34,734 bases of DNA from a virus (taxonomy: Duplodnaviria > Heunggongvirae > Uroviricota > Caudoviricetes), in IMG/VR virus record IMGVR_UViG_2531839454_000020. The stretch is one strand, 5' to 3'. A program made the position numbers and the translations under genes. Of the stretch, positions 6,684 to 33,795 are shown piece after piece. The number at the start of each line of letters is the position of its first letter. Position 1 is the first letter of the stretch. The notes beneath the pieces are model-generated. The model worked only from the letters and a program-made list of their open reading frames with translations, was not told the origin of the DNA and ran no database searches.

Positions 6684-8591
6684 ATGAAACTAATTTCTAA
6701 TAAGGCCAAATTAAAAAAGATTCTCAGAAATGCAGCCAAATATATTACGCCACCGCCTAAACTCCTTCCATCGGAATGGTGCGAAGCTAATATGGTGCTG
6801 GTAGATGGTCCTCAAGCTGGGGATAAAGTTAAATTGCTGTCATTCCAGAAAGGTATGATTGATGCTCCTTTCCTTGAGAACAAGAAAAAGTATGTTCTGA
6901 TGACCAGTGCGCAGATCGGAAAGACTACCATCCTGAACGGCATCCTGTTTAACCAGATGGCTAACGATCCATGCAATATGATTATCGGACAATCAACCGC
7001 TAAAGAAATGTCTCAATATCTCGCTGGTAAGATCCGACCGTCTATCGAAGCATGTGATGCATTAAAAGACGTGGTTACAGACAAGAATGATCGCAATGCG
7101 GTTAACAACAATAACCAACTCCAGCTAAAAACGAATCACTTCCTGTACATGGTATCGCTTACCAGTCCATCAACCCTGCGCGGTAAGACTGCAAAGGTCG
7201 GACTACTAGACGAAATCGATGCTGCTACAGCCTCAGAAGAAGGTGATCCGGTGGCACTGGCTGCTAACCGTTTAACTACCTTTGGCGATGAAGGCCGATT
7301 AGTCGTATCCAGTACCCCGACCAGTAAGCTCGGAAGCATTAACCAGCAATGGTTATCAAGCGATATGCGTATGTTTTTTGTTCCGTGTCCTCATTGCGGG
7401 GAACACCAGGTGATCGAGTGGGAAAACGTTCAATTTGAATGGCGTAACATCGATGGTAAGAACTTACCCGATCCTGATACCGCTCGTTATATTTGCCCCC
7501 ACTGTAAGAACGCATGGACAGAAGGGGAACGAATCAGGGCAGTAGCGCAAGGCGAGTGGAGAGCAACCCGTGAAAGTGAAGTAGCAGGATTCTGGATTAG
7601 CCGTCTGTATTCACCTTTCAGCACGATCCGCGCTTGTGTGGTTGATTTTAGTCATGCGTGGCAATCCTTTGATTTACAATCATTTTATAACACCGTGTTA
7701 GGCAAGGTATACGATGATCAGGACACGGCAGTAGAAGCAAATGAACTGGAACAACTCAAAACAGATGTTTCTATCGAGAATATCCCTGATGACGTGATTT
7801 TCTTGTGCTCAGGAATTGACCAGCAATTGGATCGCGCAGAATCTACCATCTTAGGTGTAGCGAAAGATAAGGTTTACATTCTGGATCACCGTAGCTTTTA
7901 CGATCATAACTGTGAACGATACGAATCACCTGTATGGGATCGTCTGGTTAACTTCAAGAAAACCAAATTCTATAACGTTAATGGTGAACGTGTGCCAATG
8001 CTCGCCAGCTTCCTCGATACATCAAACGGTCGATTCACTCAAGCCGGATACCGTATTTGTGGTAAGTGGAAGAACCTACACGCTATTAAAGGTAGTTCAT
8101 CTGGTAATGCTCCAGTGATTCCGGTTAAACCTACCCGCACAGGTGGTCATGAATTGCTTATGCTGGGCGTTAACGTTGGTAAATCCGCTGTTCGTGAAAT
8201 GCTGGTTAGAAACCTGAAAGATAATCCTCATATTGGCTTAGAAATATCAGAAACCGTTCCTGATGATTATCTCGATCAGCTTTTGAGTGAATCCATCAAG
8301 CGTACTACTACTGGTGTTCGTTGGGTGAAAAATCCAGGTAGTACCCGAAACGAGGCTCTCGACTGTCTGGTTTATAGCTATGCTGCTTCTCGCTACGTCC
8401 TTTCAAAAATGTCATGGGATAAACTCATTGCAATGAAAGACAGCTTAAACAGCGTTAAAGAAGAACCCGTAAAAGCTCCTGAATCGCAATCTGACGAGCA
8501 AATCGAAGAAACTAAGCCAATCACACGACCGCAACGTCAAAACATCGCCAGACGCCCAAATAGAGGCCGTAGCTGGGTAACATCGTTCTAA
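6684..8591 (+). CDS. terminase large subunit (GpA-like), 635 aa
   Basis: First gene of the + structural block; Walker-A-like TSAQIGKTT; size and position typical of a large terminase; SD GAGGGT. Confidence 0.8.
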
Positions 8592-8615: not shown

Positions 8616-8663
8616 TTACTCCTAAATATTGTTAATCCAATAACAATCAAATAAGGGGTAATT

Positions 8664-9161
8664 ATGAGTTTAGAACTAATTCCCTTAGTAATTCGTAAAG
8701 GCGAAAAAATCACGCTGGCGAATGAAGAGGGTGTAACAATTCAGGTAGGAAATAATAATAAAGGTATCATTTATCAGGTTGATGATACTCCGGCTAATCA
8801 CGAGATTAAAACCTTAGATTTTGCCGAAGGTAAATATACCATCGTAATAACTTTGGAAGAAGAACTGATATCAATGCAGGAATTAACTGTTTTACCAGTA
8901 TTCGCCAAACAATCCAAAAAAGAATATCTGCGGGAAACTATCGCCTTAATCGAGCAAGTTATTTTCGCCCGTTTATCTGGGGACGAAGCCGCATTATCAG
9001 CAATGACAGTGAAAGGGAATACTTTCGCCTATGAGTCATTGGCTGTTCTCCAGACTCTAAAAGTCGATTATGAACGTCAACTGTCTAAATTAATTCAAGC
9101 CGAACGACGTAAACAGGGAATTAGCCCGATTAAAAATATCAAATTACGTCTTACGCGATAA
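8664..9161 (+). CDS. hypothetical head protein (165 aa), possibly gpW-like head-tail joining
   Basis: Sits between terminase and portal, the slot of lambda gpW; SD AAGGGGT. Assignment by position only. Confidence 0.35.
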   Translation: MSLELIPLVIRKGEKITLANEEGVTIQVGNNNKGIIYQVDDTPANHEIKTLDFAEGKYTIVITLEEELISMQELTVLPVFAKQSKKEYLRETIALIEQVIFARLSGDEAALSAMTVKGNTFAYESLAVLQTLKVDYERQLSKLIQAERRKQGISPIKNIKLRLTR

Positions 9162-9171
9162 GGGGGAAATC

Positions 9172-10683
9172 ATGTTTAATCTTTTTCGACGCAAAAAGGC
9201 GGTAGAAACTCCAGTTAAAACTAATCACCGCCAGCAACAACCAAAAATTTTCATCGATAAGCAAGTAGAAAAATTCCAGAAATCTCTGGCGACTCGTAGT
9301 TTAGGACTGGTTGGTGATCGTATTGATGGATCACTTCAACAAGACACCATTACAGGAACCTTCAATAAGGCTCTCAAATCGAATGGTAAGCGCCTTTATG
9401 ATCAGGGTCGTACTCTGGCCTTAAACACTTCCGTAGGCAGTCGCTACACGCAATACATCACCGATATGGTGGTAGGTACTGGCCTAGATCCGAAGCCGTC
9501 AGTTGTTAAACCAAATGGAAAACTTGATAGCGCACTGAATAAGCAGATCGAGAATGCTTTCTGGAAGTGGGCGCAGAATGCTAAACGCTTCTCTCGCAAT
9601 GGTCGTTTTAACTTCCGTGAATTGCTGGTAATGGCTGAACGTGAGCGCGTTATGGGTGGTGAGTGTTTCATCGTTTTAACTAAAGAAAACAATGAGTTAA
9701 ATGTTTCTATCCTGTCTGCTGATAAATGCGACTGGTCGCTAAACCGTGAAATAAGCAAAGAGCGTGCGATATATCAAGGTGTGGAGTATGACGTAGAGAC
9801 GATGAAGCCCGTAGCATACTGGTTTCGTAAAATCAACCTACTGACTCAGACCTACACTGGTGATAACTATCGCGTCGATGCTTCGCAAGTATGCCATTAT
9901 TATCAACCACTTGCGGCTGAATCCCTGCGTGGTGTGACTGACTTCCTGCCAGTGATTAAGGATATCGCACATCAAGACGCATTCCGCGAAACTGCGATCG
10001 TCCAGAAACGTATTGCGGCTAGTTCTATGGGCTTTATCGAACGTCCGAAAGATTCTGGTGACGATTTTGATACTGGTGAAGAGGATGAACAATATCAAGC
10101 GCCGGAAGTAGTACAGGATTTTGCACCTGGTACTATTCAGGAATTACCGGAAGGGGCAACGATCAAGAGCATCCAGGCGACGCAAAGCGGTGATGATTTC
10201 AAATCCTTTAACGATGCGATGTATGGTAGCGTCGCGATGGGCTTAGGCGTGTTTAAACAGGGCTTGACTGGTGACACTAGCCAAATAAATTACAGCGCCA
10301 GTAGATTCGGTGATTTAATGCAACGACACCGCGTTAAAGCACTGCAAAACAAATTGATTGAAACAGTGGTATTGCCAATTTTCGAAGCATATCTACGCCA
10401 TTATTCCGCGCGTGGTATTGTTCCGATTCGTATTACTGCAATTCCGCATATTATCGATAACACTACTATTATTCGTCCTCGTTTTGAATCCGTCGATCCA
10501 TTTAAAGACGTAAGCGCCGAGATTGCTTTAATTGATAACGGACTTAAATCACGTACTGCCGTTATTCTTGAACGTGGTGATGATCCTGAAAAAGTATTCT
10601 CAGAGATTCAAGCCGAAAAGAGCGCACTAAATATTATCGTTAATGGCGAGGGTGAAGAAAAAAATTCCCCAGCCGATCCCTAA
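9172..10683 (+). CDS. portal protein (503 aa)
   Basis: Size and position directly upstream of the protease/capsid gene; SD AAGGGGGA. Confidence 0.75.
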   Translation: MFNLFRRKKAVETPVKTNHRQQQPKIFIDKQVEKFQKSLATRSLGLVGDRIDGSLQQDTITGTFNKALKSNGKRLYDQGRTLALNTSVGSRYTQYITDMVVGTGLDPKPSVVKPNGKLDSALNKQIENAFWKWAQNAKRFSRNGRFNFRELLVMAERERVMGGECFIVLTKENNELNVSILSADKCDWSLNREISKERAIYQGVEYDVETMKPVAYWFRKINLLTQTYTGDNYRVDASQVCHYYQPLAAESLRGVTDFLPVIKDIAHQDAFRETAIVQKRIAASSMGFIERPKDSGDDFDTGEEDEQYQAPEVVQDFAPGTIQELPEGATIKSIQATQSGDDFKSFNDAMYGSVAMGLGVFKQGLTGDTSQINYSASRFGDLMQRHRVKALQNKLIETVVLPIFEAYLRHYSARGIVPIRITAIPHIIDNTTIIRPRFESVDPFKDVSAEIALIDNGLKSRTAVILERGDDPEKVFSEIQAEKSALNIIVNGEGEEKNSPADP

Positions 10684-10728: not shown

Positions 10729-12729
10729 ATGCTTAAATTTCGCCGCGATCTTAACGGTTACGGTGGAGTTATTAACGAAGGGCATAACGATCAATACGAA
10801 TTTGAAATTGCTTTCTCCAGTGAACAGCCGTATCAGCGCCAATTCTGGGATGAGCAAAATCAAGAGATGGGGGTACTAGATGAAATTCTGGTACATACAC
10901 CGGAAGCGGTTGATCTGTCTCGTCTGAATAATAACGCTCCATTGCTGTTCAATCATAATTTCGATAATCATTTAGGTGTAGTCTGCGACGCTCGAATCGA
11001 TGCGGATAACGTAGGTCGTGCTCTGGTTAAATTCTCTAAGCATGGCACTTTGGCTAATGATATTCGCAATAAAGTCATTGAAGGTACGATGGAAAAAATT
11101 TCTGTCGGCTATGACATTAAAGAATATCACATCGATTACGCCAAAGGGCAATTGATTGTTACTAAGTGGGCGCCCTATGAACTCTCATTTGTCACCGTTC
11201 CTGCTGACGATACGGTCGGTTTAAATCGCTCTCTAAATACTATCACAGTTAATTTGGAGGCTAAACGCGATATGACTAAAGAACAAATTGAAGAAATCAA
11301 AGAAGAACAAGAATCCGCTCAGGTTGAAGAAACTCCGGTAGAAGAAATTAAAGAATCGGAAGTTGAAGAAACTCAAGAGCGCCAAGTTGAAGAGAATAAA
11401 GAAGATGAAAATCTCGAAGACGGAAAAGACGCTGAACATCCTGAAAGTGTTGATGATGATAGTTCAACTGTTCGGGAAGAAGAAATAAAAGAAGAACGTG
11501 AAGCTGCTCCGGTTGAAGAAGAAAAAATCGAAGAAGTGGCTGAACGTTCCGAAGAAGACGAATTAGAAATTCGCGAAATTGCACGCGAACTAAATATTGA
11601 TGACGAAGAATTGAAACGCGCATTGGCAATTAAAGACATGACGCCGGAAGCATTCCGCACTAAGGCACTAAATAATCTCGTCAATGCTCAACGTAATAAC
11701 GAACAAATTAAGGACTCTAAAATGGAAAAAACTTTTGACCTGAACAACGTAATTCGCTCTCTGGTAGATGGTGCTGCTCTGGGTGCTAACGAAGCTGAAT
11801 ATTCCTCTATGGCTGCTGGTGCTGCGATGCAGCGTGGTCGTGCTGCTCGTGGGGGCTCTGTATTCGTTCCGGCTGCTGCTCTGCGTGCTGCTGCTGATGG
11901 TAACACCAAAACTACTCTGACCGCTGTAACTGACGAAAAACTGATGACTGAATCCTACATCGAAATGCTGATGCCGGAATCTGTTCTGGGTCGTCTGGGT
12001 GTGACTGTTTACAGTGGCTTGAACTCCCCGACCGCTATTCCAAAAATGACCGCTTCCAGCGTTGACGCTTTCGGCTTCGTTGATGAAAACGGTGCTGCAC
12101 CGGAAAGCAAAGCTGAATTTGCGAACGTGAAACTGTCTCCGAAAACTTTTGCTGGTGGCAACCCGATCAGCCGTCAGTCGCTGAAAACCGTTCCGGGCAT
12201 CGCTACCCTGATCACTGATCACATTAACAAAGCTGTTCGTATCAAACTGGAACAACTGATTCTGTCTGATAAAGAAAATGCTCGTGGTCCGGCTGGTCTG
12301 GTTAAGCAACTGGTAGACGCTAGCCGCGTTACCAAGAAAGCTGCTTTCTCTTATAAAGACTTCCTGAAAGAAATTGCAGCACTGACCGACGCTGGCGTTC
12401 CTGCTCAGGCGATCAAGTTTGCAATGAGCGGTGCAACTGCTGCTGAACTGGAATCTACCCTGAAAGATAACGGCGTTTCCGGTTATATCATCGAAAACGG
12501 CAAACTGGCTGGTTACGAAGTAGTTACTTCTGGCGTTATCCCGGCAGACCACATCGTTCTGGGTGACTTCTCCGGTATTACTATCGGTGAGTGGGGAGGT
12601 CTGGAACTCGACATGGATCTAACTACATATAGGGATCGTGGTGCGGTAGTGCCTCGTATCTTTGTAGATTTGGACTACGTTGTAGCACAGCCGGAAGCCC
12701 TGAAAGTTCTTCACATCTCCGCTGAATGA
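10729..12729 (+). CDS. prohead protease - scaffold-like acidic linker - major capsid protein fusion (666 aa)
   Basis: N-terminal ~190 aa protease-like region, then an E/K-rich segment (EQIEEIKEEQESAQVEETPVEEIKESEVEE...), then a ~350-aa HK97-like capsid region. Antisense minus-strand ORFs here are artefacts. Confidence 0.7.
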   Translation: MLKFRRDLNGYGGVINEGHNDQYEFEIAFSSEQPYQRQFWDEQNQEMGVLDEILVHTPEAVDLSRLNNNAPLLFNHNFDNHLGVVCDARIDADNVGRALVKFSKHGTLANDIRNKVIEGTMEKISVGYDIKEYHIDYAKGQLIVTKWAPYELSFVTVPADDTVGLNRSLNTITVNLEAKRDMTKEQIEEIKEEQESAQVEETPVEEIKESEVEETQERQVEENKEDENLEDGKDAEHPESVDDDSSTVREEEIKEEREAAPVEEEKIEEVAERSEEDELEIREIARELNIDDEELKRALAIKDMTPEAFRTKALNNLVNAQRNNEQIKDSKMEKTFDLNNVIRSLVDGAALGANEAEYSSMAAGAAMQRGRAARGGSVFVPAAALRAAADGNTKTTLTAVTDEKLMTESYIEMLMPESVLGRLGVTVYSGLNSPTAIPKMTASSVDAFGFVDENGAAPESKAEFANVKLSPKTFAGGNPISRQSLKTVPGIATLITDHINKAVRIKLEQLILSDKENARGPAGLVKQLVDASRVTKKAAFSYKDFLKEIAALTDAGVPAQAIKFAMSGATAAELESTLKDNGVSGYIIENGKLAGYEVVTSGVIPADHIVLGDFSGITIGEWGGLELDMDLTTYRDRGAVVPRIFVDLDYVVAQPEALKVLHISAE

Positions 12730-12866: not shown

Positions 12867-12895
12867 AGCCCTGCCTTAATGGTGGGGCTTTTTTG
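12867..12895 (+). terminator. intrinsic terminator downstream of the capsid gene
   Basis: agccctgcc/ggtggggct stem followed by tttttt; lies after the 44-codon in-frame extension, not directly after the capsid stop. Confidence 0.6.
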
Positions 12896-12925
12896 TATGT
12901 AAATACTCCATAAAGGGGGGTAACT

Positions 12926-13216
12926 ATGTTCAAATTATCAGAATCACAATTATCAAGAATGTTCCGAAGTGCTCCTGTATTTTCGGTGGAAGGTGGTAAA
13001 TCAATTCGTGCTTATCATGAAATTACTACTACCGACGAACAAGGGGTAATGACAGAAACAGAATTTCTATTCTGTCGTGAGGGAGACTTAAAGCAGGGTG
13101 ATATTGTCATTGTAGAAAATCAGCGTTTCAAAGTTCAATATATTAAGCGCAATGGTGATAATACTTGTGATTGCTTTATCACTTTAGCAGGGGGTACACA
13201 TGCTCGCTACCGTTAA
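12926..13216 (+). CDS. head-tail joining/neck protein (96 aa), hypothetical
   Basis: SD AAGGGGGG; position between capsid and tail genes. Confidence 0.4.
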   Translation: MFKLSESQLSRMFRSAPVFSVEGGKSIRAYHEITTTDEQGVMTETEFLFCREGDLKQGDIVIVENQRFKVQYIKRNGDNTCDCFITLAGGTHARYR

Positions 13217-14465: not shown

Positions 14466-14491
14466 TTGCTTCTCTAAATAAAACATGACGC

Positions 14492-14523
14492 GGGGAGGTT
14501 AACGCCTCCCTTATTCCTGTTTT
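14492..14523 (+). terminator. intrinsic terminator upstream of the fibre gene
   Basis: gggagg-ttaacg-cctccc followed by T-rich ttattcctgtttt. Confidence 0.5.
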
Positions 14524-14538
14524 ATATGAGGTGATTAG

Positions 14539-17500
14539 ATGCAATCAATCCAATTTAAACGAACTAATGTTTCTGGCAAAAAACCAACGCCGGAACAATT
14601 ACAGGTCGGTGAGGTAGCAATCAACCTTAAAGACCATGTTATTTTTACCAAAGACCGAGATCATGAAGTAGTTCAAATCTCTGTTTCTCCTGAAACTCAC
14701 GCGGCACTAGAATCTAAAGTTGATGCTAATAAAAAAGAACTGGATAGCACAATTGTAGTAAACGACCGCAATATTCACGCTAAAGTAGATGAAATTAAAC
14801 AAACTACTGATGCAACAATCGCAGCAAATCACGCAGAAATTAACAATAAAGTTGATGTAATTAAACGCGAAACCGACGCGACAATCGAGGCCAATAAAAA
14901 TAAAGCTGCTTCCGATCTTGCTGGTGTTAAAGCTGAATTGTCGGATACCATCAACGCTAATAAAAATGCGGCTGCTGTAGCAACTCAGGAACTGGACACC
15001 CGCATCAATAAAAAAGTTGATGATATTAAATCCCGTACCGATGCAACCATCGTAAGCAATCACAAAGCAATCAATGACAAAGTTGATTTGATTAAGGCAG
15101 AAACTGACCGCACTATCGCAGCAAATCACGCCTATGCGGAAAATCAGTTAACTGACACCTACAATAACCTTACTGGTGTGATTGCAGCCAATAAGCAAGA
15201 GGCAGCGGATAACGTCGCAGCATTAACCCGTGATGTTGAAGCCAAAAATACAGCAATTCATAGCAAAGTTGACAATAACAAGTCTTACACTGATTCTGAA
15301 TTGGCACGCTTAGAAAGCCGTATTGATGCAGCCGATGGATCAAGTGATGGTAAGTACATCAAAAAGCACGTAAACACTTGCACTGATGGCTATTTGCTGT
15401 CTAAGACCGCAAACCCTTTTGATGATCCGAGTGCTCTTAATCTTGATTACTTTGGTGCATTTCGCATGAATGACCTGGCGGGTCATATTGCAATGATCTT
15501 GCATGTTCCGCACCCATCCGGCGTTAATCATGCTCGTGGTTTTGAGTTCACTTATGGGTCTAATCCACATGCTACTGTAAGAACATACGGCTATGATGAA
15601 TTGGGACATTTGGCATATTCTCACCGCATGTATCATGAAGGTGATAAACCTACTCCGGCTGAAATTGGCGCATATTCGAAAGCAGAAATTGACCGACTGT
15701 TCCAGAAGACGCTTAATTTTGGTATCGAGGGTGGTTGGTTTAAACTAGGCACTTTGACAATGCCACAACAACACGGTCGCACGGCTAAGATCCGTTTGGT
15801 AGGTGGTAACGGTTATAACGTAGGACATAATGGAAAAGCCAATATTATCGAATTGGTGATTCGATGCGGCAACAATAGCCCGAAAGGTGTTGTATTCAAT
15901 GCGTATTATACTATTTGGCATTATGAACAACATTTTTGCGCTATTCCAACCGATGGCGACAATTACGATCTTTACGCTTACTACGGTGCACATACAGGAT
16001 TTGTTTTAGCAGAATATCAAGTTTCTTCCGGTGGTGTTTCTTTAAACCTGTTGGATACTCCTGAATATCTGGGTGGTGAAAAACCTGTTGCAGATGAAAT
16101 TTTTGATGCTCTTAACATTTCATCGTTCAATAACTTTAGCAACCGTGGGACGTTAAATTTTGCTGGCAATCATCAAGGCCAATATGATATTGAGCATTTA
16201 AACGAACAACCGACAAATGCTAAAAAGATGTTGCGTCGCTTCCGTAGTTGTGCACCAGCTACAATCTGGCATGAGACAGTTGATGATAACGCATATCGTC
16301 TTGCTACTGGATACGAAGATACAAATCAGGAATTATTGCTGACAGCAACATCCGGGTTACATGTCAAGAAATTAACATTGGATGGCGGTGTTACTGGAAA
16401 TTCTGGTATTGATATTCGTCGAGGACCAAACGAATCAAGTCATTTTAATTTCATGGATTATCGCACTGGACAAGATGTTCGTAATGGTTGGTTTGGTTTT
16501 GGTGATGGAACAACCAAAGATTTTATTTGGTGGAACGATAACGGTCAAAACTCTATAAACCTGATTGAAGATGGTGAATTGCATATTACTGGCGGTAAAG
16601 GCCAGAAAATTGTAATGAATAGCGAAGTTGCATTATCTGAAAATGCTCGTTTGGCTGTCAAAGGTGGTAACTATGGCTTAATTTTTAGAAATGATGGCGT
16701 TGGCTTCCATATTCTTACCACAGATCTCGGTGATTCATTTGGACCGTGGAATACTCGTAGACCATTCAGCTATAATTTTGCTGACGGTGGATTATATTTA
16801 GGTGGCACTGAAACTGCTCGTTGTTTGCATCTTGGAATTGATGGTAGTACCCGTCTTGAAGACAACCTTTTCTTTAAAGCTGGTTCTCGTCAATCTATGG
16901 ACTATATGGAACTCGTCCATTGGGGGGCAAGCAATACAGGTCGAAATAACGTTTTAAGTCTTCGTGACTCAAAAGGATTTTTCGCAGAATTTGAACGATT
17001 GGGTGATAATACCATTAAAAACACCTTCTTCGGGAAACTTAAAGTTAATCGTGGTTCTGACGCAATCGTCATGAATGCCGAAACGGGTGATTCGTCTATA
17101 TATTTGCTGGGTACTTGTGCTGATAATAACAACTGGTATATCGGTAAAGGTGGTGCTGATAATGGATTAGCGTTCTATAGCTATGCTACTAATGCTGCTA
17201 TCAATATTACAAACGCGGGTGATATCGCGCTAAGTCCAAAAGGTGTCGAAATGACTCATGTCAATAACGTTCGATTCTATGTTCATGGTGAACGTTGGAC
17301 TGCTAGCCAATCTGGAGGTTGGGGCGATCAATGGGGATTAGAAGCGCCGATATTTGTCGATCATGGTTATGTAGGACCAGATAGCTATTATCCAATTATT
17401 AAAGGAAGAAGTTTAATCACCAATCAAGGGTATACAACTGCCGTCGATTTTGGTATGCGTCGTGTTCCTCAAAATTGGGGGCAAGCAATTATTCGCGTTG

Positions 17501-17949
17501 GATCTGCGGAGGCATCGCCAGCGGCTGGTCATCCTCAAGCGGTGTTTGAATTTCATCATGATGGTACTTTCTATTCTCCTGGTAATGGTAACTTTAACGA
17601 TGTTTATATTCGTTCCGATGGTCGTCTGAAAATTAATGTTGAAGATTACGAAGAAAATGCGGTGGATAAGGTAAATAAACTCAAAGTTAAAACCTACGAT
17701 AAAGTTAAATCTCTTAATGACCGAGAAGTTATAGGTCATGAGATTGGTATTATCGCACAGGATTTACAAGAGGTATTACCGGAAGCTGTTAAAACCGCAA
17801 AAATTGGTGGTCTTGATAACCCAGAAGAAATTTTAACAATTTCAAACTCCGCAGTGAACGCGCTTTTAATTAAAGCGGTCCAAGAAATGAGCGAAGAAAA
17901 TAAACTTCTTCGTGAACGTCTTGCTGCAATTGAAGCTAAATTAGGGTAA
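14539..17949 (+). CDS. L-shaped-type tail fibre with C-terminal intramolecular chaperone (peptidase S74-like), 1136 aa
   Basis: N-terminal FKRTNVSGKKPTPEQLQVGEVAINLKD; four KVD-x-IK-xx-TD-x-TI-xx-NH repeats; C-terminal ~110 aa beginning S|DGRLKINVEDYE and ending in a coiled coil, as in auto-cleaving chaperone domains of T5-type fibres and endosialidases (recalled). Confidence 0.75.
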   Translation: MQSIQFKRTNVSGKKPTPEQLQVGEVAINLKDHVIFTKDRDHEVVQISVSPETHAALESKVDANKKELDSTIVVNDRNIHAKVDEIKQTTDATIAANHAEINNKVDVIKRETDATIEANKNKAASDLAGVKAELSDTINANKNAAAVATQELDTRINKKVDDIKSRTDATIVSNHKAINDKVDLIKAETDRTIAANHAYAENQLTDTYNNLTGVIAANKQEAADNVAALTRDVEAKNTAIHSKVDNNKSYTDSELARLESRIDAADGSSDGKYIKKHVNTCTDGYLLSKTANPFDDPSALNLDYFGAFRMNDLAGHIAMILHVPHPSGVNHARGFEFTYGSNPHATVRTYGYDELGHLAYSHRMYHEGDKPTPAEIGAYSKAEIDRLFQKTLNFGIEGGWFKLGTLTMPQQHGRTAKIRLVGGNGYNVGHNGKANIIELVIRCGNNSPKGVVFNAYYTIWHYEQHFCAIPTDGDNYDLYAYYGAHTGFVLAEYQVSSGGVSLNLLDTPEYLGGEKPVADEIFDALNISSFNNFSNRGTLNFAGNHQGQYDIEHLNEQPTNAKKMLRRFRSCAPATIWHETVDDNAYRLATGYEDTNQELLLTATSGLHVKKLTLDGGVTGNSGIDIRRGPNESSHFNFMDYRTGQDVRNGWFGFGDGTTKDFIWWNDNGQNSINLIEDGELHITGGKGQKIVMNSEVALSENARLAVKGGNYGLIFRNDGVGFHILTTDLGDSFGPWNTRRPFSYNFADGGLYLGGTETARCLHLGIDGSTRLEDNLFFKAGSRQSMDYMELVHWGASNTGRNNVLSLRDSKGFFAEFERLGDNTIKNTFFGKLKVNRGSDAIVMNAETGDSSIYLLGTCADNNNWYIGKGGADNGLAFYSYATNAAINITNAGDIALSPKGVEMTHVNNVRFYVHGERWTASQSGGWGDQWGLEAPIFVDHGYVGPDSYYPIIKGRSLITNQGYTTAVDFGMRRVPQNWGQAIIRVGSAEASPAAGHPQAVFEFHHDGTFYSPGNGNFNDVYIRSDGRLKINVEDYEENAVDKVNKLKVKTYDKVKSLNDREVIGHEIGIIAQDLQEVLPEAVKTAKIGGLDNPEEILTISNSAVNALLIKAVQEMSEENKLLRERLAAIEAKLG
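17617..17946 (+). other. predicted auto-cleaved intramolecular chaperone domain of the fibre
   Basis: Begins at the Asp of ...YIRS|DGRLK...; 110 aa to the stop. Confidence 0.55.
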
Positions 17950-17987
17950 TTGGAAAGCGGGGAGAAATCTCCGCTAAGGATTCTTAT

Positions 17988-18284
17988 ATGGGATATTGGG
18001 TAAGTAGTGAAATTAATACTAAAATCGATGCTTTAAAATGGCATGTATTTGATATTCCTAACGGCTATGGTACTGCTCGTGCTGGTGTCGCTGTAATGCG
18101 TCATAATGCTGGTGGTGGGTGGTCTGATGCACATATTAACGTAGATGGTTTGACCGTTGCTCGTCGTCGTGGTGGGACCAATTGGGGATCTACTATAAAT
18201 TCGTTTGTTCCTGCTGGCTGCACCGTCTCCTTTGGTTTAGGGGGTGAAGGTGGTGTTGAATATTTTAAATTCATGGAGTTTTAA
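17988..18284 (+). CDS. small Gly-rich protein, paralog 1 of 3 (98 aa), function unknown
   Basis: MGYWVSS...FDIPNGYG...CTVSFGLGGEGGVEYFKF; AAGGA SD. Confidence 0.6.
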   Translation: MGYWVSSEINTKIDALKWHVFDIPNGYGTARAGVAVMRHNAGGGWSDAHINVDGLTVARRRGGTNWGSTINSFVPAGCTVSFGLGGEGGVEYFKFMEF

Positions 18285-18286
18285 TT

Positions 18287-18592
18287 ATGGCTGGATGGAT
18301 AAATCAAAGAATGTCAAACGCTATTAGTATTTGGGCTAATGGTGGATATTTTGATATCCCCAACGGCTGGGTTACTGATTCATGCGGAATTGTTTTTGCT
18401 CATATGGAAGCCATTAACGGTGCTGGTGATCTTGATTCTGAATTGGCTGTAAATGGATTGATTGAATCAGGTCATCATGCTGGTGATGCTGGGAGTTGGG
18501 GCGCTAGTTCTTTAGTTGGCGCTGGTGCTACCGTTAGCTTTACATTGGGTAAAGGTAGTTTGCATTATTTTAAATTCAGGAGAATGCACTAA
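18287..18592 (+). CDS. small Gly-rich protein, paralog 2 of 3 (101 aa), function unknown
   Basis: MAGWINQ...FDIPNGWV...ATVSFTLGKGSLHYFKF; starts 3 nt after paralog 1; SD GGAG. Confidence 0.6.
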   Translation: MAGWINQRMSNAISIWANGGYFDIPNGWVTDSCGIVFAHMEAINGAGDLDSELAVNGLIESGHHAGDAGSWGASSLVGAGATVSFTLGKGSLHYFKFRRMH

Positions 18593-18894
18593 TGGCATTT
18601 TGGGTAGATGGCGCTTTGGGGAATAGGGCGGGTAAAGCAAATCAAGGATGGTTTGATATTCCTAACGGTTGGACAGCCGACGCTTTCGGGACTATTTCAT
18701 TCTGTGCTCATTCTTCCGGTGGTGGCGGTGGTGACTCTGAATTGCTTATTCATGGTTTGTGTGTTTCTGGAAGCCATAAGGGTCATGATTGGGGACAGAT
18801 TCATTCTTGTATTGCACCGCAAGGGGCGGTAATTACCGTTAGCACAAATAGGGGGATCGCTCATCTTCGTTATAGACGTTTGAGCAACCGCTAA
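18592..18894 (+). CDS. small Gly-rich protein, paralog 3 of 3 (100 aa), function unknown
   Basis: MAFWVDG...FDIPNGWT...AVITVSTNRGIAHLRY; start overlaps the stop of paralog 2 (TAATG). Confidence 0.6.
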   Translation: MAFWVDGALGNRAGKANQGWFDIPNGWTADAFGTISFCAHSSGGGGGDSELLIHGLCVSGSHKGHDWGQIHSCIAPQGAVITVSTNRGIAHLRYRRLSNR

Positions 18895-18948
18895 ATAAAT
18901 AGAATTACGGGTATGTGCCCTATTGTTTAAAATAGAAGGAAAAGAATA

Positions 18949-19419
18949 ATGACTACTAAATTTGATATTTTTTCTGGTGGCCTCGTTGGTCTGTTTCTGC
19001 ATGAAGAAGTAACTAACACCGATCTTGACAGTGAAAGCTATCTGGAAATTCCAGAATGTGCGGCTTTCCCGGAAACTGGTGTAGAACGTTCTACTGTCGA
19101 TGTTCCTAACTTCGGTGGTCCGTATAACCGTAAGCTGGTTGGTCGTATGTCTGTACCGGATATCGAACTTTCGATCAACTACATGCCGGGTAACGAAGTA
19201 CACGAAAAACTGATTAAAGCAACCGAAGACGGTAAGCGCGTACAGATTAAAATTGCTTACTACATCGACGCTACGAAAAAATCTGGTGTACATATCGCTT
19301 ATAACGGCTTCCTGTCTAAAACTACCATGACTGGTGGTGAGGATGCTGTAGTAGGCCGTACCTTCACCTTTGTAGTAGATGGTGCTCCGGTTAAACAAGC
19401 TGTTTTCCAGAAACTCTAA
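18949..19419 (+). CDS. major tail (tube) protein, putative (156 aa)
   Basis: Directly upstream of the G/T chaperone pair and tape measure; strong SD GAAGGAAAAG; followed by a strong terminator. Confidence 0.5.
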   Translation: MTTKFDIFSGGLVGLFLHEEVTNTDLDSESYLEIPECAAFPETGVERSTVDVPNFGGPYNRKLVGRMSVPDIELSINYMPGNEVHEKLIKATEDGKRVQIKIAYYIDATKKSGVHIAYNGFLSKTTMTGGEDAVVGRTFTFVVDGAPVKQAVFQKL

Positions 19420-19427: not shown

Positions 19428-19452
19428 AGCCATCCTTCGGGGTGGCTTTTTT
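19428..19452 (+). terminator. intrinsic terminator after the major tail gene
   Basis: agccatcc-ttcg-gggtggct followed by tttttt. Confidence 0.65.
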
Positions 19453-19501
19453 GTTTCCAATTCTAAATAAACATATCTAATTAACTTAAGAGGAAACAAG
19501 A

Positions 19502-19810
19502 ATGAATATTAATGAAATGCTGAAAGCTCTTTCTCCGAAACGCGAATCTCTGACCATCGGTGGATTCACTTTCTATGCTCGCCCTATGTCAGTAAAAGAA
19601 TTTAACGAACATGTTTTCAATACCGATAAAGATGACCGTGATGAACGTTCTATTCTTCGTTGTATTGAAGATGAAGACGGTAAACCAGTATTTGAATCTA
19701 TGGAACAAGTTAAGGCACTGTATACTAACGTCCGCAGTGAATTAATCGGTTTGGTTGCTCAAGCGTCATTGATGCAAGATCCGGCAGTAATTGAAAACGA
19801 GGTAAAGTAA
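19502..19810 (+). CDS. tail assembly chaperone (lambda G-like), 102 aa
   Basis: Position before the tape measure; SD AAGAGGAAA. Confidence 0.55.
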   Translation: MNINEMLKALSPKRESLTIGGFTFYARPMSVKEFNEHVFNTDKDDRDERSILRCIEDEDGKPVFESMEQVKALYTNVRSELIGLVAQASLMQDPAVIENEVK

Positions 19811-20192: not shown

Positions 20193-22622
20193 ATGACAAA
20201 ACATATAGTAACAATAGAAGGGGATAATAAAGGGCTAAAGAGAAGTACCAATGAAGCCGCCGACCTTCTCGATAGTTTGTCTGAAAAGGCAAGTAATATT
20301 GATTTTGGTGGTGGCTTATCTGGTCTGACTGGATCTCTTCGTGGGATCGCTGGCTCTGCTGGTTTGGCTGCTGGTGGTATTGGCTTAGTTGCGACCGCAG
20401 TGGTTGCAGCCGCTAAAGCTGGTGCGGAATACGTTAAACAGTATTCAGAAGTATCTAAGGCGACCGGACTCTCGATTGAATCCCTTCAAAGACTAGAAAA
20501 GGAATTTTCTGGCACTGGCTTAACAGTTGAAAAATTCGGTGATATCAACAAAGACACCTTAGATAAAATGGGTGATGCATGGGCTAACGGTGGCGGTATT
20601 GCCGATGACTTAGAATCGGTTGGCCTTAAGTTAGAAAACTATGCTCACTTCATGACTGATCCGCAAGGTGGTATGAAAGCGGCGATCCAAGTGTTCTATG
20701 ACATGAAGAAAGCCGGAAAATCAATGGCTGAAATCAAGTTCATGATGGAATCTTTAGCCAGTGATTCAAGCCATATGACCAGCCAGCTTGAGAAATATAA
20801 TACTGCTCAAGAGGCGATGATCGCTATTCAGAATCAATCTGTTAACGTCACCGAAGAAAACGCTAAAAAATATGATAAATTTTCTCAAAATATCAATAAG
20901 CTGGAAAATAACCTGAAAGGTGTCGGTATGACCATTTCTGGTCCGCTGGTTGATAGTTTAAACTGGTTATTTGACTGGTTTAATATTGATTGGGAAAAGA
21001 GTTCTCTATTCAGGGCATTAGATCGACTGAATAAAGAAGGCAAGACCGCAACTGGCGGTATTCTTAACGCCAACCATAAAGACGCTCAAAAAATTATTGA
21101 CAAGTACAATAAAGAAAAGCGTTGGAATAATCTGGCAGATTGGGAAAAGGCCGCGATCCGTGGTGCTGGTGTCGATCCTCGTACTGCTGGCTTTGATGTT
21201 GAAGGATTTAAGAAACGTTTTGGTGATTCTTATAAGAAAAATGGCTCTCTGATTGTTGTCGATAACGGGGAACATCTGACACGCAAGGCAGATCCTAACA
21301 CTGATTTGACTATACCAAATAAACCAGTAAGACCAGAATCATTGGGTAAATCTGGCAACGAGAAGAAAGCCGAAGAAGAAGCACGCAAGAAAGCGGAAGA
21401 GGCAGCTAAAAAGGCTAAGGAAGCCGCAGAAAAAGCACAGAAAGAACGCGAGGACGCAATCAAGCGACTGAATGCACTTGATGTTAAATTGCAAGGGCAG
21501 GTTGCCGCGTCTATTGCTTCTCAAAACAAGCAGTTAGAAGCCAGTTTGAAAGATTTGGATACTGCTTTAGCTCTGGGCTTAATCTCTCAGGAAGACGCAG
21601 CCGCGAAACGCCAGGCGCTAATCGATCAGAATACTGAAAACGTATACAAAATGGTCTTAGGTGCTGATCCGGTTGATGCTCTGAATGCTTTAACACAATT
21701 GCAACAAATCAGGGACAACGAGTTAGAAAGCCATAAACGGTTACTTGATGGTAAGGCTATCTCCTACGAAGAATATATGCGTCGTGTGAATGATACCGAA
21801 CAAAGTTATTCACAGATTGAAGATTCTTTGCATGGAATGGATGGTTTTAAAACCAATCAATTGACCAATAGCTTAGACTATCAGGACTCAAATAATCCGT
21901 TTGCTAAATTTAATGCAATCGATAAAGAGAAATCGGATGCTGAACAAGATTATAAGACCGATAAACTCAAGATTGATGGGATCACCGATCCGGCTAAACG
22001 GATGGAAGAATTAGAAAAACTCAATGAAAACCATCAAAAACGAATGGCTGCAATTGAGAAGAAATATGCTGATGCTCGCCAGTCAATAGCCGATGATATG
22101 TACGGCGGTTTTGCTGCTGCAATGACTCTCTTCGGGCAGGAAAACACTAAAGCTATGCAGATGGCTTTCAATGCTCATAAAGCATTCTCTATCGGACAAG
22201 CGACGGTGAACATGTGGACGGCTGCTACCGATGCATGGAACGATCCGACCAACGTCACCACAGGTCAAAAAATCGCGGCTGCTGCATTGGCTGTTTCTCA
22301 GAACATGGGGAACATCGCAAACATCAAGTCTACTAACGTTAGCGGTATGGCTCATGATGGTATTGATAACATCCCTCGTGAGGGTACATGGTTGCTTGAT
22401 AAGGGTGAACGAGTAGTTGATCAGCGTACTAACGGTGATTTGAAAGACTTCCTTGCTGCTCAAAAATCAGGTGGGGGTAACTCTCAGCCGATTGAAGTTA
22501 ATGCGCCTTTGAACATTAACGGCAACGTTAATAGCTCAGACAAGATGGTCATGGATGCTATCAAACGTCACGCTAAGTTTGTTGCTCAGGCGATAGAAGA
22601 CGTTCAGCGTCGTAAGATGTAA
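20193..22622 (+). CDS. tape measure protein (809 aa)
   Basis: Long protein after the chaperone pair; Gly/Ala-rich N-terminal segment and K/E/A coiled-coil stretches (EEEARKKAEEAAKKAKEAAEKAQKE). Confidence 0.75.
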   Translation: MTKHIVTIEGDNKGLKRSTNEAADLLDSLSEKASNIDFGGGLSGLTGSLRGIAGSAGLAAGGIGLVATAVVAAAKAGAEYVKQYSEVSKATGLSIESLQRLEKEFSGTGLTVEKFGDINKDTLDKMGDAWANGGGIADDLESVGLKLENYAHFMTDPQGGMKAAIQVFYDMKKAGKSMAEIKFMMESLASDSSHMTSQLEKYNTAQEAMIAIQNQSVNVTEENAKKYDKFSQNINKLENNLKGVGMTISGPLVDSLNWLFDWFNIDWEKSSLFRALDRLNKEGKTATGGILNANHKDAQKIIDKYNKEKRWNNLADWEKAAIRGAGVDPRTAGFDVEGFKKRFGDSYKKNGSLIVVDNGEHLTRKADPNTDLTIPNKPVRPESLGKSGNEKKAEEEARKKAEEAAKKAKEAAEKAQKEREDAIKRLNALDVKLQGQVAASIASQNKQLEASLKDLDTALALGLISQEDAAAKRQALIDQNTENVYKMVLGADPVDALNALTQLQQIRDNELESHKRLLDGKAISYEEYMRRVNDTEQSYSQIEDSLHGMDGFKTNQLTNSLDYQDSNNPFAKFNAIDKEKSDAEQDYKTDKLKIDGITDPAKRMEELEKLNENHQKRMAAIEKKYADARQSIADDMYGGFAAAMTLFGQENTKAMQMAFNAHKAFSIGQATVNMWTAATDAWNDPTNVTTGQKIAAAALAVSQNMGNIANIKSTNVSGMAHDGIDNIPREGTWLLDKGERVVDQRTNGDLKDFLAAQKSGGGNSQPIEVNAPLNINGNVNSSDKMVMDAIKRHAKFVAQAIEDVQRRKM

Positions 22623-22627: not shown

Positions 22628-22671
22628 AGCCCCCATAGTGATAAATAATCATAAAACTATGGGGGCTTTTC
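22628..22671 (+). promoter_or_regulatory. long hairpin whose 3' arm contains the SD of the next gene
   Basis: agcccccatagt ... actatgggggct, 12-bp stem and 17-nt loop containing ATAAATA; the GGGGG of the 3' arm lies 9 nt upstream of the ATG at 22673. Confidence 0.5.
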
Positions 22672-22672: not shown

Positions 22673-23233
22673 ATGTTCAAATCCAAGAATATTAAAATCA
22701 CAGATTTTACTCTTAAATCAAAACAGCCTTTCTTCAAGGCGCAATCTATTTCTGGTAAGTTCCAGCGTCGCTTTACTGGTATTCATTTTTATGAAGCAGA
22801 ATTTACAGCTAATTTCATGGCTCAGGATATTAACGAAGTAAAAGAATTTGTAGCACGTCACCTTTTTGGTCGTCCTTTTAGTGTGCCACTGTCTTACTTT
22901 TCAAAATATACAGGCGATGTACGCCAGATGGTAACGGCTGCTGCTGGTACTGCTCGCGGTGGGCGTAAGGTAAGACTCTCCAACTTCACCGGAACACTGA
23001 AAGCGGGAACTATCATCCAGTTTGAGAACCACAAGAAAATCTACACGATCACCGAAGATGTGAAATCAGGTGGTGAAATGAAACTCTTCCCTAACTTGCG
23101 TCAAAACGTCCTGGCTGGTGAGGTGATCAAGTATCAGAACGTAGAAGGTGAATTTGTTCTCAAAACTGAAAATATCGATTGGAAGATCGCCCAGATTGGC
23201 AAGATGAAATTCGAATTAGTGGAGAATGTATAA
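22673..23233 (+). CDS. minor tail protein (lambda M-like by position), 186 aa
   Basis: First ORF after the tape measure; stop overlaps next start (TAATG). Confidence 0.45.
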   Translation: MFKSKNIKITDFTLKSKQPFFKAQSISGKFQRRFTGIHFYEAEFTANFMAQDINEVKEFVARHLFGRPFSVPLSYFSKYTGDVRQMVTAAAGTARGGRKVRLSNFTGTLKAGTIIQFENHKKIYTITEDVKSGGEMKLFPNLRQNVLAGEVIKYQNVEGEFVLKTENIDWKIAQIGKMKFELVENV

Positions 23234-23886
23234 TGGCAACTATTCAGGAATCATTCAGCAAACTATGCACTAATCTGGACTTCATCGAGGTCTACAACGA
23301 CCAGACAGGTCAGAACGTGTCTAGATTGACGCTACCGCAGCTTTTTTCCACTGGATCGATGTTTCACATTATCGAAGTGATAACAGCGTCAGGGGACGTT
23401 CTACGGCTTACAGATGGGTATTTCGATTTGGACTATAACGGATTTACGTATCTCGCAACGGGTGATTTTCTTCAAATCTCATCGAATACCGAAGAGAAGG
23501 AGATCAACAACAACGGGATTAACGTAACCGTTTCTAACGTTCGCGAAGAATACATTACTCTCATTCGAAACAAGCAATTCGATAAATCCGATGTGAAAAT
23601 CGAGATGGTTTTCCTTAACCCCAACACGGGCAAGGTTGAAACCACTTACCCTGTTTTCCGTGGGGTAGTCGATTCCATCGGTATTAACATCGAACATGAA
23701 GATGATGAGTGTAAAAACGAATCAGAATTTCAGCTTAATAGTATCTGGGAAGTTCTAGATAAAAACGCTCGTAGTCATGCCTCCGATGGTATCCACCGTT
23801 CCTATGTTGGAAACGAGAACGATCTATTCTTCTCAAGGACCGGGCGCTGGCAATCGGAAAGCAAGTGGCATTCATCGAAGAAATAA
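23233..23886 (+). CDS. minor tail protein (lambda L-like by position), 217 aa
   Basis: Start at MATIQESF with GGAGAA SD; the longer track ORF (from 23179) overlaps the previous gene without an SD. Confidence 0.45.
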   Translation: MATIQESFSKLCTNLDFIEVYNDQTGQNVSRLTLPQLFSTGSMFHIIEVITASGDVLRLTDGYFDLDYNGFTYLATGDFLQISSNTEEKEINNNGINVTVSNVREEYITLIRNKQFDKSDVKIEMVFLNPNTGKVETTYPVFRGVVDSIGINIEHEDDECKNESEFQLNSIWEVLDKNARSHASDGIHRSYVGNENDLFFSRTGRWQSESKWHSSKK

Positions 23887-23932
23887 TCCCTTCTCCCTAA
23901 GCCTAGTAAATAACAGCATGGAGGTATTCAAC

Positions 23933-24352
23933 ATGCTAAAAACTAGGCTTATCACCGATTACATCAATTCTTTAATAGGTCAGGAGTTCGTTCAAGGCGA
24001 GAATGATTGCAATATAATTGCATGTAAGATCATCGATATTCTCGCTGGTACTGACCTATATAATTCTCTTTATAAAAAATATTCAACTAAAGAAGAAGGC
24101 TTGAAAATCTGCAAAGAATTAAGCGGATACACAAATATCCTTCAACCAATTAAGAAACATTTCAAATTAGTCACTGATGATTTACAGGACGGCGACTTAC
24201 TGGTCACAGCCCACAAATTAGGAAACCGCAAATATTATTCCGTAGTTCCTCATTATTCCGGTTATGGCCTCGTTGAAGAAGATGGTATCTGGATGACCAT
24301 TCCTGTTTCAGACATTGACTATGAACAAGTTTATAGATTCGGGGGGGAATAA
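23933..24352 (+). CDS. tail assembly protein (lambda K-like, NlpC/P60-type), 139 aa
   Basis: Start at MLKTRL with GGAGGT SD; ENDC motif suggests an NlpC/P60-type catalytic Cys; stop overlaps the next start. Confidence 0.45.
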   Translation: MLKTRLITDYINSLIGQEFVQGENDCNIIACKIIDILAGTDLYNSLYKKYSTKEEGLKICKELSGYTNILQPIKKHFKLVTDDLQDGDLLVTAHKLGNRKYYSVVPHYSGYGLVEEDGIWMTIPVSDIDYEQVYRFGGE

Positions 24353-28157: not shown

Positions 28158-28203
28158 TCTAAATAATTCTGCCATTAAATTATATAAAAATATCGGGGGC
28201 GTA

Positions 28204-29356: not shown

Positions 29357-29366
29357 TCCATAAATA

Positions 29367-30469: not shown

Positions 30470-30515
30470 TTCTTATAAATAGTAGTGAATATTATTTTAT
30501 TGAGGATTCACTACT
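30451..30515 (+). promoter_or_regulatory. conserved promoter-like element CCAAAA-N17-TATAAATA-GTAGTGAA plus 10-bp inverted repeat enclosing the SD (copy 2 of 2)
   Basis: CCAAAA 30451..30456, TATAAATA 30474..30481, AGTAGTGAAT 30481..30490 pairing with ATTCACTACT 30506..30515; SD TGAGGA in the loop; ATG at 30516. Confidence 0.45.
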
Positions 30516-33267: not shown

Positions 33268-33330
33268 ACCATTTCCAAACAAAAACGCCCCTACCGCGTA
33301 TTATAACGATAGGGGCTAGGTGATTAAAGA

Positions 33331-33750: not shown

Positions 33751-33795
33751 AGTAGAATTTCCTCTTGTTATTTGAATTACGATATATTTATATCG

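Follow-up and report, generated by a model that had tools for sequence, protein, structure and literature searches.

T4-type late promoters, satellites and the element

The late promoters of phage T4 consist of the octamer TATAAATA at positions -13 to -6, without a -35 element (PMC1524935; PMC2988020). Of 50 T4 sites, 32 are perfect and nine have A at -13; position -13 is loose in other T4-like phages, and position -12 is A in T4 and RB49 and C in Aeh1, which reads CTAAATA from -12 (PMC1524935; PMC2988020). A T4-late-like motif, TggTAaAAtA, precedes the late genes of rV5, which has no gp55, gp33 or gp45 homologues (PMC3606486). In full-text searches of the literature we found no report of T4-type late promoters in prophages or outside genomes that encode gp55, nor of satellites or hyperparasites of T4-like phages (T-even, Krischvirus), nor on the phage DCP80 discussed below.

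The promoters of satellite P4 carry the late-promoter signal of its helper P2, and a helper factor activates them in trans. The PLE of Vibrio cholerae (helper ICP1) and the PICMIs are integrated and silent until a lytic phage infects the cell, then excise and compete with it. The Streptomyces satellites MulchRoom and MiniFlayer encode their own encapsidation machinery and lack key replication genes (deCarvalho et al. 2023, PMC10690885).

The DNA analysed here (the window, the whole stretch of 34,734 nucleotides) is 34.7 kb of a prophage-like element with a GC content of 41–42%, and represents nearly the whole element, which measures about 35–37 kb and carries a serine integrase. Relatives with 93–96% nucleotide identity were found in 62 of 5426 complete E. 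coli genomes, or about 1%. The insertion site differs by strain, either hicB or ycdX being split. In a complete copy of about 35 kb (L004), the DNA to the left of the window adds only the gene for the small terminase and one or two further small ones. A metagenome contig of 35.3 kb was considered as a free circular genome and rejected: it begins in hicB and has no terminal repeat, and is therefore an integrated copy. Genes in the window were assigned with PHROGs and Pfam as follows.

4738-5580, + strand, Rha-family protein
6684-8591, + strand, gpA-type large terminase (TerL)
8664-9161, + strand, head-tail protein
9172-10683, portal
10729-12729, + strand, S78-protease/HK97-capsid fusion
14539-17949, + strand, long tail fibre
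18949-19419, + strand, tail tube
19502-19810, + strand, tail assembly chaperone
20193-22622, tape measure
from 22673, + strand, distal tail gene
23933-24352, + strand, DUF6950 gene (start as annotated in RefSeq relatives)
24352-28098, distal tail and tip proteins
from 29395, + strand, lysis cluster, with the endolysin at 29752-30105
31588-33282, - strand, serine integrase

The virion and lysis genes (terminase, portal, protease-capsid, connector, tube, tape measure, tip, fibre and endolysin) form a full siphovirus-type set. No replication, repressor or sigma-like gene was recognisable with PHROGs and Pfam in the window and the complete copy; about 12 small ORFs have no assignment, and a novel promoter-recognition or replication protein could be hidden among them. 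The window gave no Rfam match to a known RNA family.

The element differs from T4-like myoviruses in being a 35-kb, integrating, siphovirus-type entity whose terminase is of gpA type and whose protease-capsid fusion is of HK97 type. Integrated and mobile, it brings its own integrase and att sites and, unlike the classical satellites (P4, PICI, cf-PICI, PLE), which have no complete virion set, encodes one. As in P4, its promoters would carry the late-promoter recognition sequence of a helper, here proposed to be a virulent T4-like phage; however, P4 relies on an upstream Ogr/Delta activator site with sigma70 rather than on a sigma-type -10, and steals the P2 virion. Likewise, the PLE and PICMIs are 7–20 kb long and use helper virion parts, whereas the element has complete head, tail, fibre and lysis modules within 35–37 kb. 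MulchRoom and MiniFlayer resemble the element in a composition adapted to the helper (codon usage there, GC and tetranucleotides here), but they have other hosts and unrelated genes, no promoter wiring was described, and their dependence is experimental and not, as here, deduced. rV5 differs in being a large autonomous virulent myovirus with a longer and different motif.

Position and conservation of the TAAATA motif

The original prediction was that TAAATA recurs upstream of twelve + strand genes. All twelve pairs exist, none of the stated coordinates being off by more than 2 nt, and the hexamers start at 3696, 4662, 6607, 8623, 12900, 14475, 18892/18896, 19464, 22642, 28160, 29361 and 30476. 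Most of these sites are conserved in relatives; the exceptions are 6607, which is specific to the window, and 18892, the conserved sites being 6649 and 18896. We added + strand sites at 10628 and 23907, - strand sites at 2550, 2750, 5992, 6623 and 33785, and + strand orphans at 646, 2193 and 3010. Distances from motif to gene were measured to the starts annotated in RefSeq for relatives, which places the 'coding' copies 10628 and 23907 at promoter positions. The sites, given with the two bases that precede the hexamer, are the following.

644-651, + strand, ACTAAATA, conserved orphan with no gene downstream
2191-2198, + strand, orphan TATAAATA, followed by a terminator at 2235-2264
2550-2557, - strand, TATAAATA, 49 nt before gene 2306-2500 (64-aa HTH protein)
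2750-2757, - strand, second conserved - strand copy
3008-3015, + strand, GTTAAATA, conserved orphan with no gene downstream
3694-3701, + strand, TATAAATA, 44 nt before gene 3746-4195 (149 aa); unchanged in all 20 distinct relatives, whose flanking sequences vary on either side
4660-4667, + strand, CATAAATA, 70 nt before the Rha-family gene; TATAAATA in 11 of 18 relatives
5992-5999, - strand, TCTAAATA, 29 nt before gene 5729-5962 (77-aa HTH protein); kept in 28 of 28 relatives
6623-6630, - strand, GATAAATA, 26 nt before gene 5991-6596 (201-aa tandem HTH protein); hexamer invariant in 29 relatives
6647-6654, + strand, AATAAATA, 29 nt before the TerL gene; kept in 21 of 21 relatives
8621-8628, + strand, CCTAAATA, directly 3' of the hairpin CGCCGTCCTTCGGGGCGGC and 35 nt before the head-tail gene
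10626-10633, + strand, ACTAAATA, inside the portal gene at its 3' end, 95 nt upstream of the protease-capsid fusion; 25 relatives read ACTAAATA and one reads TATAAATA
12898-12905, + strand, TGTAAATA, directly after a terminator (12867-12889) and its T-run, 20 nt before gene 12926-13216; kept in 21 of 21 relatives
14473-14480, + strand, TCTAAATA, the site under study, at -13 to -6 in T4 numbering, 58 nt before the ATG of the fibre gene
18894-18901, + strand, AATAAATA, 47 nt before the tail tube gene; in the overlapping pair 18892/18896, only 18896 is kept, 18892 being missing in some relatives
19462-19469, + strand, TCTAAATA, after a terminator (19428-19447) and its T-run, 32 nt before gene 19502-19810
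22640-22647, + strand, GATAAATA, in the loop of the hairpin AAAGCCCCCATAGT...ACTATGGGGGCTTTT, 25 nt before the distal tail gene
23905-23912, + strand, AGTAAATA, 20 nt before the DUF6950 gene; kept in 5 of 5 relatives
28158-28165, + strand, TCTAAATA, after the hairpin CCCGCTTAA...TTAGGCGGG and its T-run, 38 nt before gene 28204
29359-29366, + strand, CATAAATA, 28 nt before gene 29395, the first of the lysis cluster
30474-30481, + strand, TATAAATA, 34 nt before gene 30516
33785-33792, - strand, TATAAATA, 34 nt before gene 33331-33750, which is followed by the serine integrase gene; kept in 5 of 5 relatives

Over the whole window, TAAATA is not more frequent than expected by chance (30 copies against 36.1 +/- 5.7). 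In the + strand spacers from 3600 to 31587 (1660 nt), it is the most frequent of all hexamers, with 14 copies in 12 of 27 spacers; dinucleotide-preserving shuffles of the spacers contained 4.2 copies on average and reached 14 in one of 5000, and in 1000 shuffles any one hexamer was common to at most 12 spacers (mean 7.4). Its reverse complement occurs once in these spacers, a strand bias of about 13–14:1. The comparison of spacers with coding DNA, proposed as a check of the motif, showed unequal frequencies, the density being about 28 times higher in spacers. About 17 of 24 transcription-unit starts, on both strands and including the integrase operon, carry the motif 20–95 nt upstream, and five of the six - strand copies lie 26–49 nt before - strand genes or in the control region. 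The motif is not confined to + strand late genes: - strand units, regulatory genes and the integrase operon are headed by it as well.

A control pipeline counted 15 sense and four antisense upstream copies in the window, compared with no sense and zero to one antisense copy in three other enterobacterial gpA-terminase prophages, and three of each in an AT-rich Wolbachia prophage. For these unrelated controls, a profile scan of species-representative genomes gave only gpA terminases about 28–30% identical; a scan of the same type of genomes with a terminase pattern instead of a profile gave no match.

Each site was aligned with up to 27 relatives. The hexamer was invariant across relatives at 14 of 16 + strand sites while the flanks varied (variable columns: 5 of 96 in the motif versus 354 of 1344 in the flanks; Fisher p = 3e-7). 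At 14475, CTAAATA was invariant in 17 distinct relatives and the 30 nt upstream diverged; here and at 4662, the upstream sequences of different relatives are unrelated and converge a few nucleotides before the motif, three such sequences being found at 4662. The - strand upstream copies were also invariant, and an antisense copy within the fibre gene was not kept. The copy at 6607 was rejected as the terminase promoter and treated as chance, since it is window-specific and reads TAAATC in 18 of 24 relatives.

Within the terminase family, identity to the window is 68–80% in Salmonella, 50–59% in other E. coli lineages, and 40–50% in Citrobacter, Enterobacter, Serratia, Pantoea and Edwardsiella. 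Gene order, and the motif at orthologous genes on both strands, were kept in four contexts with 79%, 59%, 56% and 51% TerL identity (Salmonella, E. coli). The motif precedes TerL in the relatives L115, L116 and L117, in which CCTAAATA is also found at the gene orthologous to 8664-9161, and TATAAATA or CTAAATA lies 50–97 nt before the capsid gene in L115–L118 and in the DCP80 segment described below.

The consensus is N[A/C]TAAATA, 8 bp long, with no other upstream position conserved; counts at positions -12 to -1 before the hexamer revealed neither a -35 element nor any other conserved upstream sequence. At 22 conserved sites, the base at -12 is A in 12, C in 7, G in 2 and T in 1, and the base at -13 varies within sites. 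The five bases after the motif are 71% A+T compared with 65% in spacers overall, a small difference. The motif often directly follows an intrinsic terminator (12867-12889, 19428-19447, and the hairpins before 8623 and 28160). For the site 14475, transcription is predicted to start near 14485-14487, giving a leader with a hairpin at 14492-14511 and the SD sequence GAGGTG at 14528-14533. Hairpins downstream of several motifs were rejected as a signal, as they were no more stable than shuffles given the predicted start.

Links to Krischvirus and search for a reader

In the RB49-like phages G37-3 and KFS-EC, TATAAATA precedes gp36, gp9, gp18, gp22, gp23 and gp24, AATAAATA precedes gp20, and a terminator followed by CTAAATA lies about 40 nt before gp37 and the holin gene t. 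The Krischvirus cassette consisting of a terminator, [A/C]TAAATA, about 40 nt and ATG (gp9, gp24, gp36, gp37, t) is the same as that seen in the element. Straboviridae late promoters, which use gp55, gp33 and the gp45 clamp, and the element motif are alike in their 8-bp motif centred at -10, their loose -13, the A or C at -12 and the lack of a -35 element, and in lying 20–95 nt before structural or lysis genes, often after a terminator and on both strands. They differ in that the element lacks gp55, gp33 and gp45, in that its motif also heads regulatory-region genes and the integrase operon, and in the share of C at -12, which is higher (7 of 22 to about half of the sites) than among the structural Krischvirus sites sampled (2 of 15, with gp37 and t in addition). 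The proposal that TAAATA matches the core of T4-type late promoters is thus supported at the level of sequence by the 8-bp motif, its spacing of 20–95 nt, the loose -13, the missing -35, the Krischvirus cassettes and a depletion of sigma70-like sites (see below), promoter activity being deduced from these features.

Two tracts are shared with Krischvirus; the list was made from parts of Krischvirus genomes and may be incomplete.

15625-18910, + strand, 3.3 kb, 86–97% identical at the nucleotide level to G37-3 and KFS-EC, covering the distal half of the fibre and three small genes
30195-30452, + strand, 258 nt, 97–98% identical to the central part of Krischvirus inh, in frame within ORF 30098-30469

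The first tract ends about 10 nt beyond TAAATAAATA, which is identical in G37-3. Exchange of tail fibres between T-even and temperate phages is generally known. The second tract matches Phi1, GEC-3S and about 50 other records; inh encodes the inhibitor of the prohead protease gp21. Because the inh codon phase is kept, ORF 30098-30469 is a chimera with 86 Inh residues. The element also resembles Krischvirus in composition, with 41.7% GC against 41%, and its tetranucleotide signature, computed with the fibre block masked, correlated best with Krischvirus (r = 0.87), compared with 0.69–0.76 for the E. coli flanks, 0.70–0.71 for T-even DNA and 0.65–0.69 for distant relatives of the element. In a cell infected by T4 proper, cytosine DNA is degraded and its transcription blocked, an obstacle that a helper with cytosine DNA would not present. 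hmC synthases are missing from Krischvirus genomes, and canonical cytosine is described for at least one of their number (PMC13390438).

The original prediction recommended looking for a late sigma factor elsewhere in the genome. The window is nearly the whole element, and tblastn with gp55, gp33, gp45, RpbA and MotA queries (from the T-even part of DCP80) found no match in the window, in the complete copy or in the DCP80 segment. A 201-aa HTH candidate gave a structure model that was not sigma-like. To our knowledge, the motif matches none of the consensus sequences of host alternative sigma factors. When the window was compared by tblastn with the DCP80 segment and with the left arm of L118, the relative at 51% TerL identity, only structural proteins were shared, and the five conserved non-structural genes of the close family all lie behind the motif. 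Rha was rejected as an activator, since neither L118 nor the DCP80 segment has it and both have the motif.

Among 50,697 phage records, 'Escherichia phage DCP80' was the only relative with more than 32% terminase identity (43%). This record is a scrambled T-even (Gaprivervirus) assembly, with three rIIA copies and duplicated primase, exonuclease and ndd genes, in which T-even homology starts only at about 30.7 kb; the first 30.7 kb had no other match in the phage collection. This segment is syntenic with the structural module of the element, has small terminase, endonuclease VII and HNH genes, and shows, upstream of its genes, perfect TATAAATA that directly follows a terminator; neither an integrase nor replication genes were found in it. 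The association could reflect a contaminating prophage in the lysate and not co-propagation. IMG/VR contained only close relatives of the element and none of the DCP80-type terminase.

Sigma70-type promoters were found at two places.

4231-4259, + strand, near-consensus TTGACA-17-TATGAT, before gene 4316-4648, which has no TAAATA motif
2828-2856, - strand, near-consensus TTGACA-17-TATACT, pointing into the leftward operon

The element so appears to have two promoter classes, one of the TAAATA type and one of the sigma70 type. The structural block has fewer sigma70-like sites than expected (24 against 45 +/- 6), and the sigma70 scan found none before late genes. The two strong sigma70 promoters belong to a 1.2-kb control region that also has iterons (3051-3172), which suggest an origin, a hix-like palindrome (3033-3047) and tandem LexA-like boxes (2672-2708) with conserved CTGT/ACAG ends and variable centres; together, these features resemble what an autonomous temperate phage that responds to SOS would have as its early circuit and origin. 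A custom HMM defined a small, conserved family of Hin-like HTH proteins, comprising the proteins of 64 and 77 aa and two repeats within the protein of 201 aa, with one member in the DCP80 segment. We infer that the hix-like palindrome is a more likely target of these proteins than the TAAATA motif.

Possible readers of the motif

We propose that the recurring motifs are late promoters of T4 type and that a superinfecting T4-like phage reads them in trans, a view to which we give about an even chance. Since the element has no gp55, gp33 or gp45, its promoters would most likely be read by the apparatus of such a phage, and Krischvirus (the RB49 group) is the most plausible helper source. Indirect pointers to a helper are the promoters of helper type, the recent exchange of DNA with Krischvirus, the likeness in composition and the relative embedded in a T-even assembly. 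From sequence comparisons we infer promoter activity, gp55 recognition, activation in trans and helper-driven replication. The integrated element would be mostly silent save for the two sigma70-driven units. Late in helper infection, the gp55 sigma factor bound to host core RNA polymerase would, with gp33 and the gp45 clamp, fire the motif promoters, and these would drive the integrase operon, the small and large terminase, the head and tail genes, the fibre tip shared with the helper, the Inh-derived protein and the lysis genes, after which the element would assemble and fill its own siphovirus-type particles. The element may thus be a virus-building parasite awakened by an infecting T4-like phage. 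More tentatively, and with a probability that we place somewhat below even, it would represent a family of satellite viruses of T4-like phages that encode their own virions and are widespread in enterobacteria (here with a Krischvirus helper), with nearly the whole genome wired to helper gp55, gp33 and gp45 and probably replicated by the helper; it would excise, build its own particles with a fibre tip copied from the helper and perhaps sabotage helper head maturation through an Inh-derived decoy, acting both as a hyperparasite and as a defence of the bacterial population. Activation that depends on gp45 needs loading of the clamp on nicked or replicating DNA, which argues against reading in trans, as the integrated element would need to acquire DNA in such a state. 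The unassigned ORFs, the conserved HTH family, the make-up of the control region and the high share of C at -12 also count against it, as do the general occurrence of fibre exchange and the possible contamination behind the DCP80 record.

The main competitor is an autonomous temperate phage that, once induced by SOS or otherwise, redirects host RNA polymerase by means of an unrecognised late factor of its own, the likeness to T4 being convergent or ancestral; we hold this to be rather unlikely. The control region, with its LexA-like boxes, iterons, palindrome and strong promoters, is what such a phage might have, and candidate factors are present, either among the products of the leftward sigma70-driven operon (the 64-aa HTH protein, a 331-aa coiled-coil protein and an 80-aa protein) or among the HTH paralogues, whose family is conserved as far as the DCP80 segment. 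The rV5 motif, which occurs without gp55, gp33 and gp45, makes a reader other than gp55 conceivable. However, PHROGs, Pfam, tblastn and the structure model revealed nothing sigma-like, and apart from the short HTH family tblastn showed no non-structural protein that the window has in common with the DCP80 segment or with the left arm of L118, the motif being present in all three. That all five conserved non-structural genes themselves lie behind the motif also counts against an own factor, as does the lack of the conserved upstream site that a classical activator should leave, and the family, common in genomes, is absent as an isolated temperate phage among the 50,697 records. If the element did encode its own reader, this would be a promoter-recognition protein of a new kind that had arrived at the T4 late motif by convergence. 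In a mixed case, the element would be SOS-inducible and additionally switched on by T4-like infection.

The other explanations dispense with a phage-type reader. Ordinary host sigma70 promoters with weak -10-like elements, perhaps aided by a host factor or supercoiling, would fit the AT-rich spacers and the five sites that read TAAATAAT, which contains AATAAT, an acceptable -10 hexamer. We consider them improbable, because the hexamer ends in A where sigma70 most needs T (TAAATA had been called a poor -10), a shifted -10 or a -35 match is missing at most sites, the structural block is poor in sigma70-like sites and none precede the late genes, and constitutive expression of lysis and terminase genes would kill the lysogen. 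A role other than promotion, as a signal for RNA processing or stability, as part of a terminator cassette, or as a packaging, replication or nucleoid-protein site, is brought to mind by the copies directly after terminators or in a hairpin loop (22642) and by conserved copies inside the capsid gene. It has little probability in view of the strict orientation of the motif towards a gene 20–95 nt downstream on both strands, of the many sites without an adjacent hairpin and of leaders that fold no better than shuffles; moreover, the same cassette precedes Krischvirus late genes, and the motif matches the T4 late consensus, for which transcription is documented. It had also been suggested that the recurrence is due to chance in AT-rich spacers, which would agree with the overall count in the window and with the copy at 6607. 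This is hardly credible and was excluded because of the spacer enrichment, the strand bias, the position of the copies and their invariance amid variable flanks; the motif is moreover retained down to 43–51% protein identity and is absent from the control prophages.

Few virulent phages have been studied as well or are used as widely as the T4-like phages. If the motif is read in trans, about 1% of complete E. coli genomes, together with many Salmonella and other Enterobacterales, would harbour a dormant virus that is woken only by T4-like infection. It would also mean that a mobile element can sense a phage by way of the phage's sigma factor, which would be novel, and would entail a new interference with therapy cocktails of T4-like phages and a route for the exchange of receptor-binding modules between virulent phages and integrated elements.

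Finally, the orphan copy at 2191-2198 and the terminator that follows it predict an RNA of about 70 nt, antisense to the leftward operon.

Control region and leftward operon

A 1.2-kb non-coding control region carries five phased iterons, which adjoin a perfect palindrome similar to the hix half-sites of Hin; tandem LexA-box-like sites were also found. The features of this part of the window, with the three paralogous HTH genes, are as follows:

2191-2275, + strand: conserved TATAAATA, then a strong terminator (2235-2264) about 40 nt downstream
2672-2708: tandem LexA-box-like sites, CACTGT-N8-CCAGTG and CTGT-N8-ACAG
2884-2898: degenerate copy of the palindrome ATCAAAATTTTTGAT
3033-3047: perfect palindrome ATCAAAATTTTTGAT, adjoining the iterons
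3051-3172: five iterons, AAACCTACACTA, spaced by 22 nt
2306-2500, 5729-5962 and 5991-6596, all - strand: three paralogous HTH genes

Across 13 relatives, the CTGT/ACAG ends of the LexA-like boxes were constant while the central 8 nt varied, and this pattern suggests that the leftward operon is under SOS control. The iterons and the adjoining palindrome may constitute an origin and/or an operator array. All three HTH paralogues encode a Hin-like signature (GRPxKF...GIsxsxFYkxxKK), present twice in the 201-aa paralogue. The HMM of this family also matched a 54-aa ORF (L008 28091-28252, - strand) in the segment of the Escherichia phage DCP80 record that is distantly related to the element.

From the arrangement at 2191-2275, a transcript of about 70 nt is expected, which would be antisense to the leftward operon. 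Its putative template lies between the 64-aa and the 331-aa genes, and the fold z-score of the predicted RNA was -2.8.

CTAAATA-type motifs in the capsid gene and an Inh-like ORF

Further motif copies, and a chimeric ORF, were found within the late genes:

11234, 11591 and 11669, + strand: within the protease-capsid fusion gene, copies of the [A/C]CTAAATA type
30098-30469: chimeric ORF of 123 aa, directly downstream of the endolysin gene

The three copies are largely kept among relatives; they could be internal promoters of the capsid part, or merely conserved codons.

Inh is the inhibitor of the prohead protease gp21. In the chimeric ORF, a 33-aa N-terminus unique to it precedes 86 Inh-like residues, which match the middle part of Krischvirus Inh at about 97% identity. 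The Inh-like tract shares 98% nucleotide identity with Phi1, GEC-3S and about 50 further records, and is read in the same codon phase as Krischvirus inh. The product could act as a decoy or inhibitor against head maturation of the proposed helper.

Insertion sites, relatives and passenger genes

Closely related element copies occupy two chromosomal sites: hicB is split in some strains, ycdX in others (L001/L002, L005, L006 and L116 versus L003 and L004). The public DCP80 record (PQ671644.1, L008-L010) is a scrambled, chimeric assembly, with three copies of rIIA, duplicated primase, exonuclease and ndd, terminase fragments, and a non-T-even segment of about 30.7 kb joined to its start. Passenger, nuclease and rearranged sequences were located as follows:

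window 58-276: MITE or IS285-like passenger sequence
L005 25047-25817, L001 26622-27686 and window 30846-31514: variable free-standing nuclease genes
L118 3-919, - strand: inverted homologues of the window's distal tail genes (22673-23886), adjoining the relative with 51% TerL identity

These inverted homologues suggest a second, adjacent or rearranged element copy at L118. Stx-converting and other lambdoid phages carry copies of the passenger sequence at 99% identity, and this sequence explains why the left window end matches thousands of E. coli records. The nucleases (NUMOD3, GIY-YIG and PHROG 'endonuclease') are of kinds typical of T4-like phages, and in the various element copies their genes sit as insertions between conserved genes.
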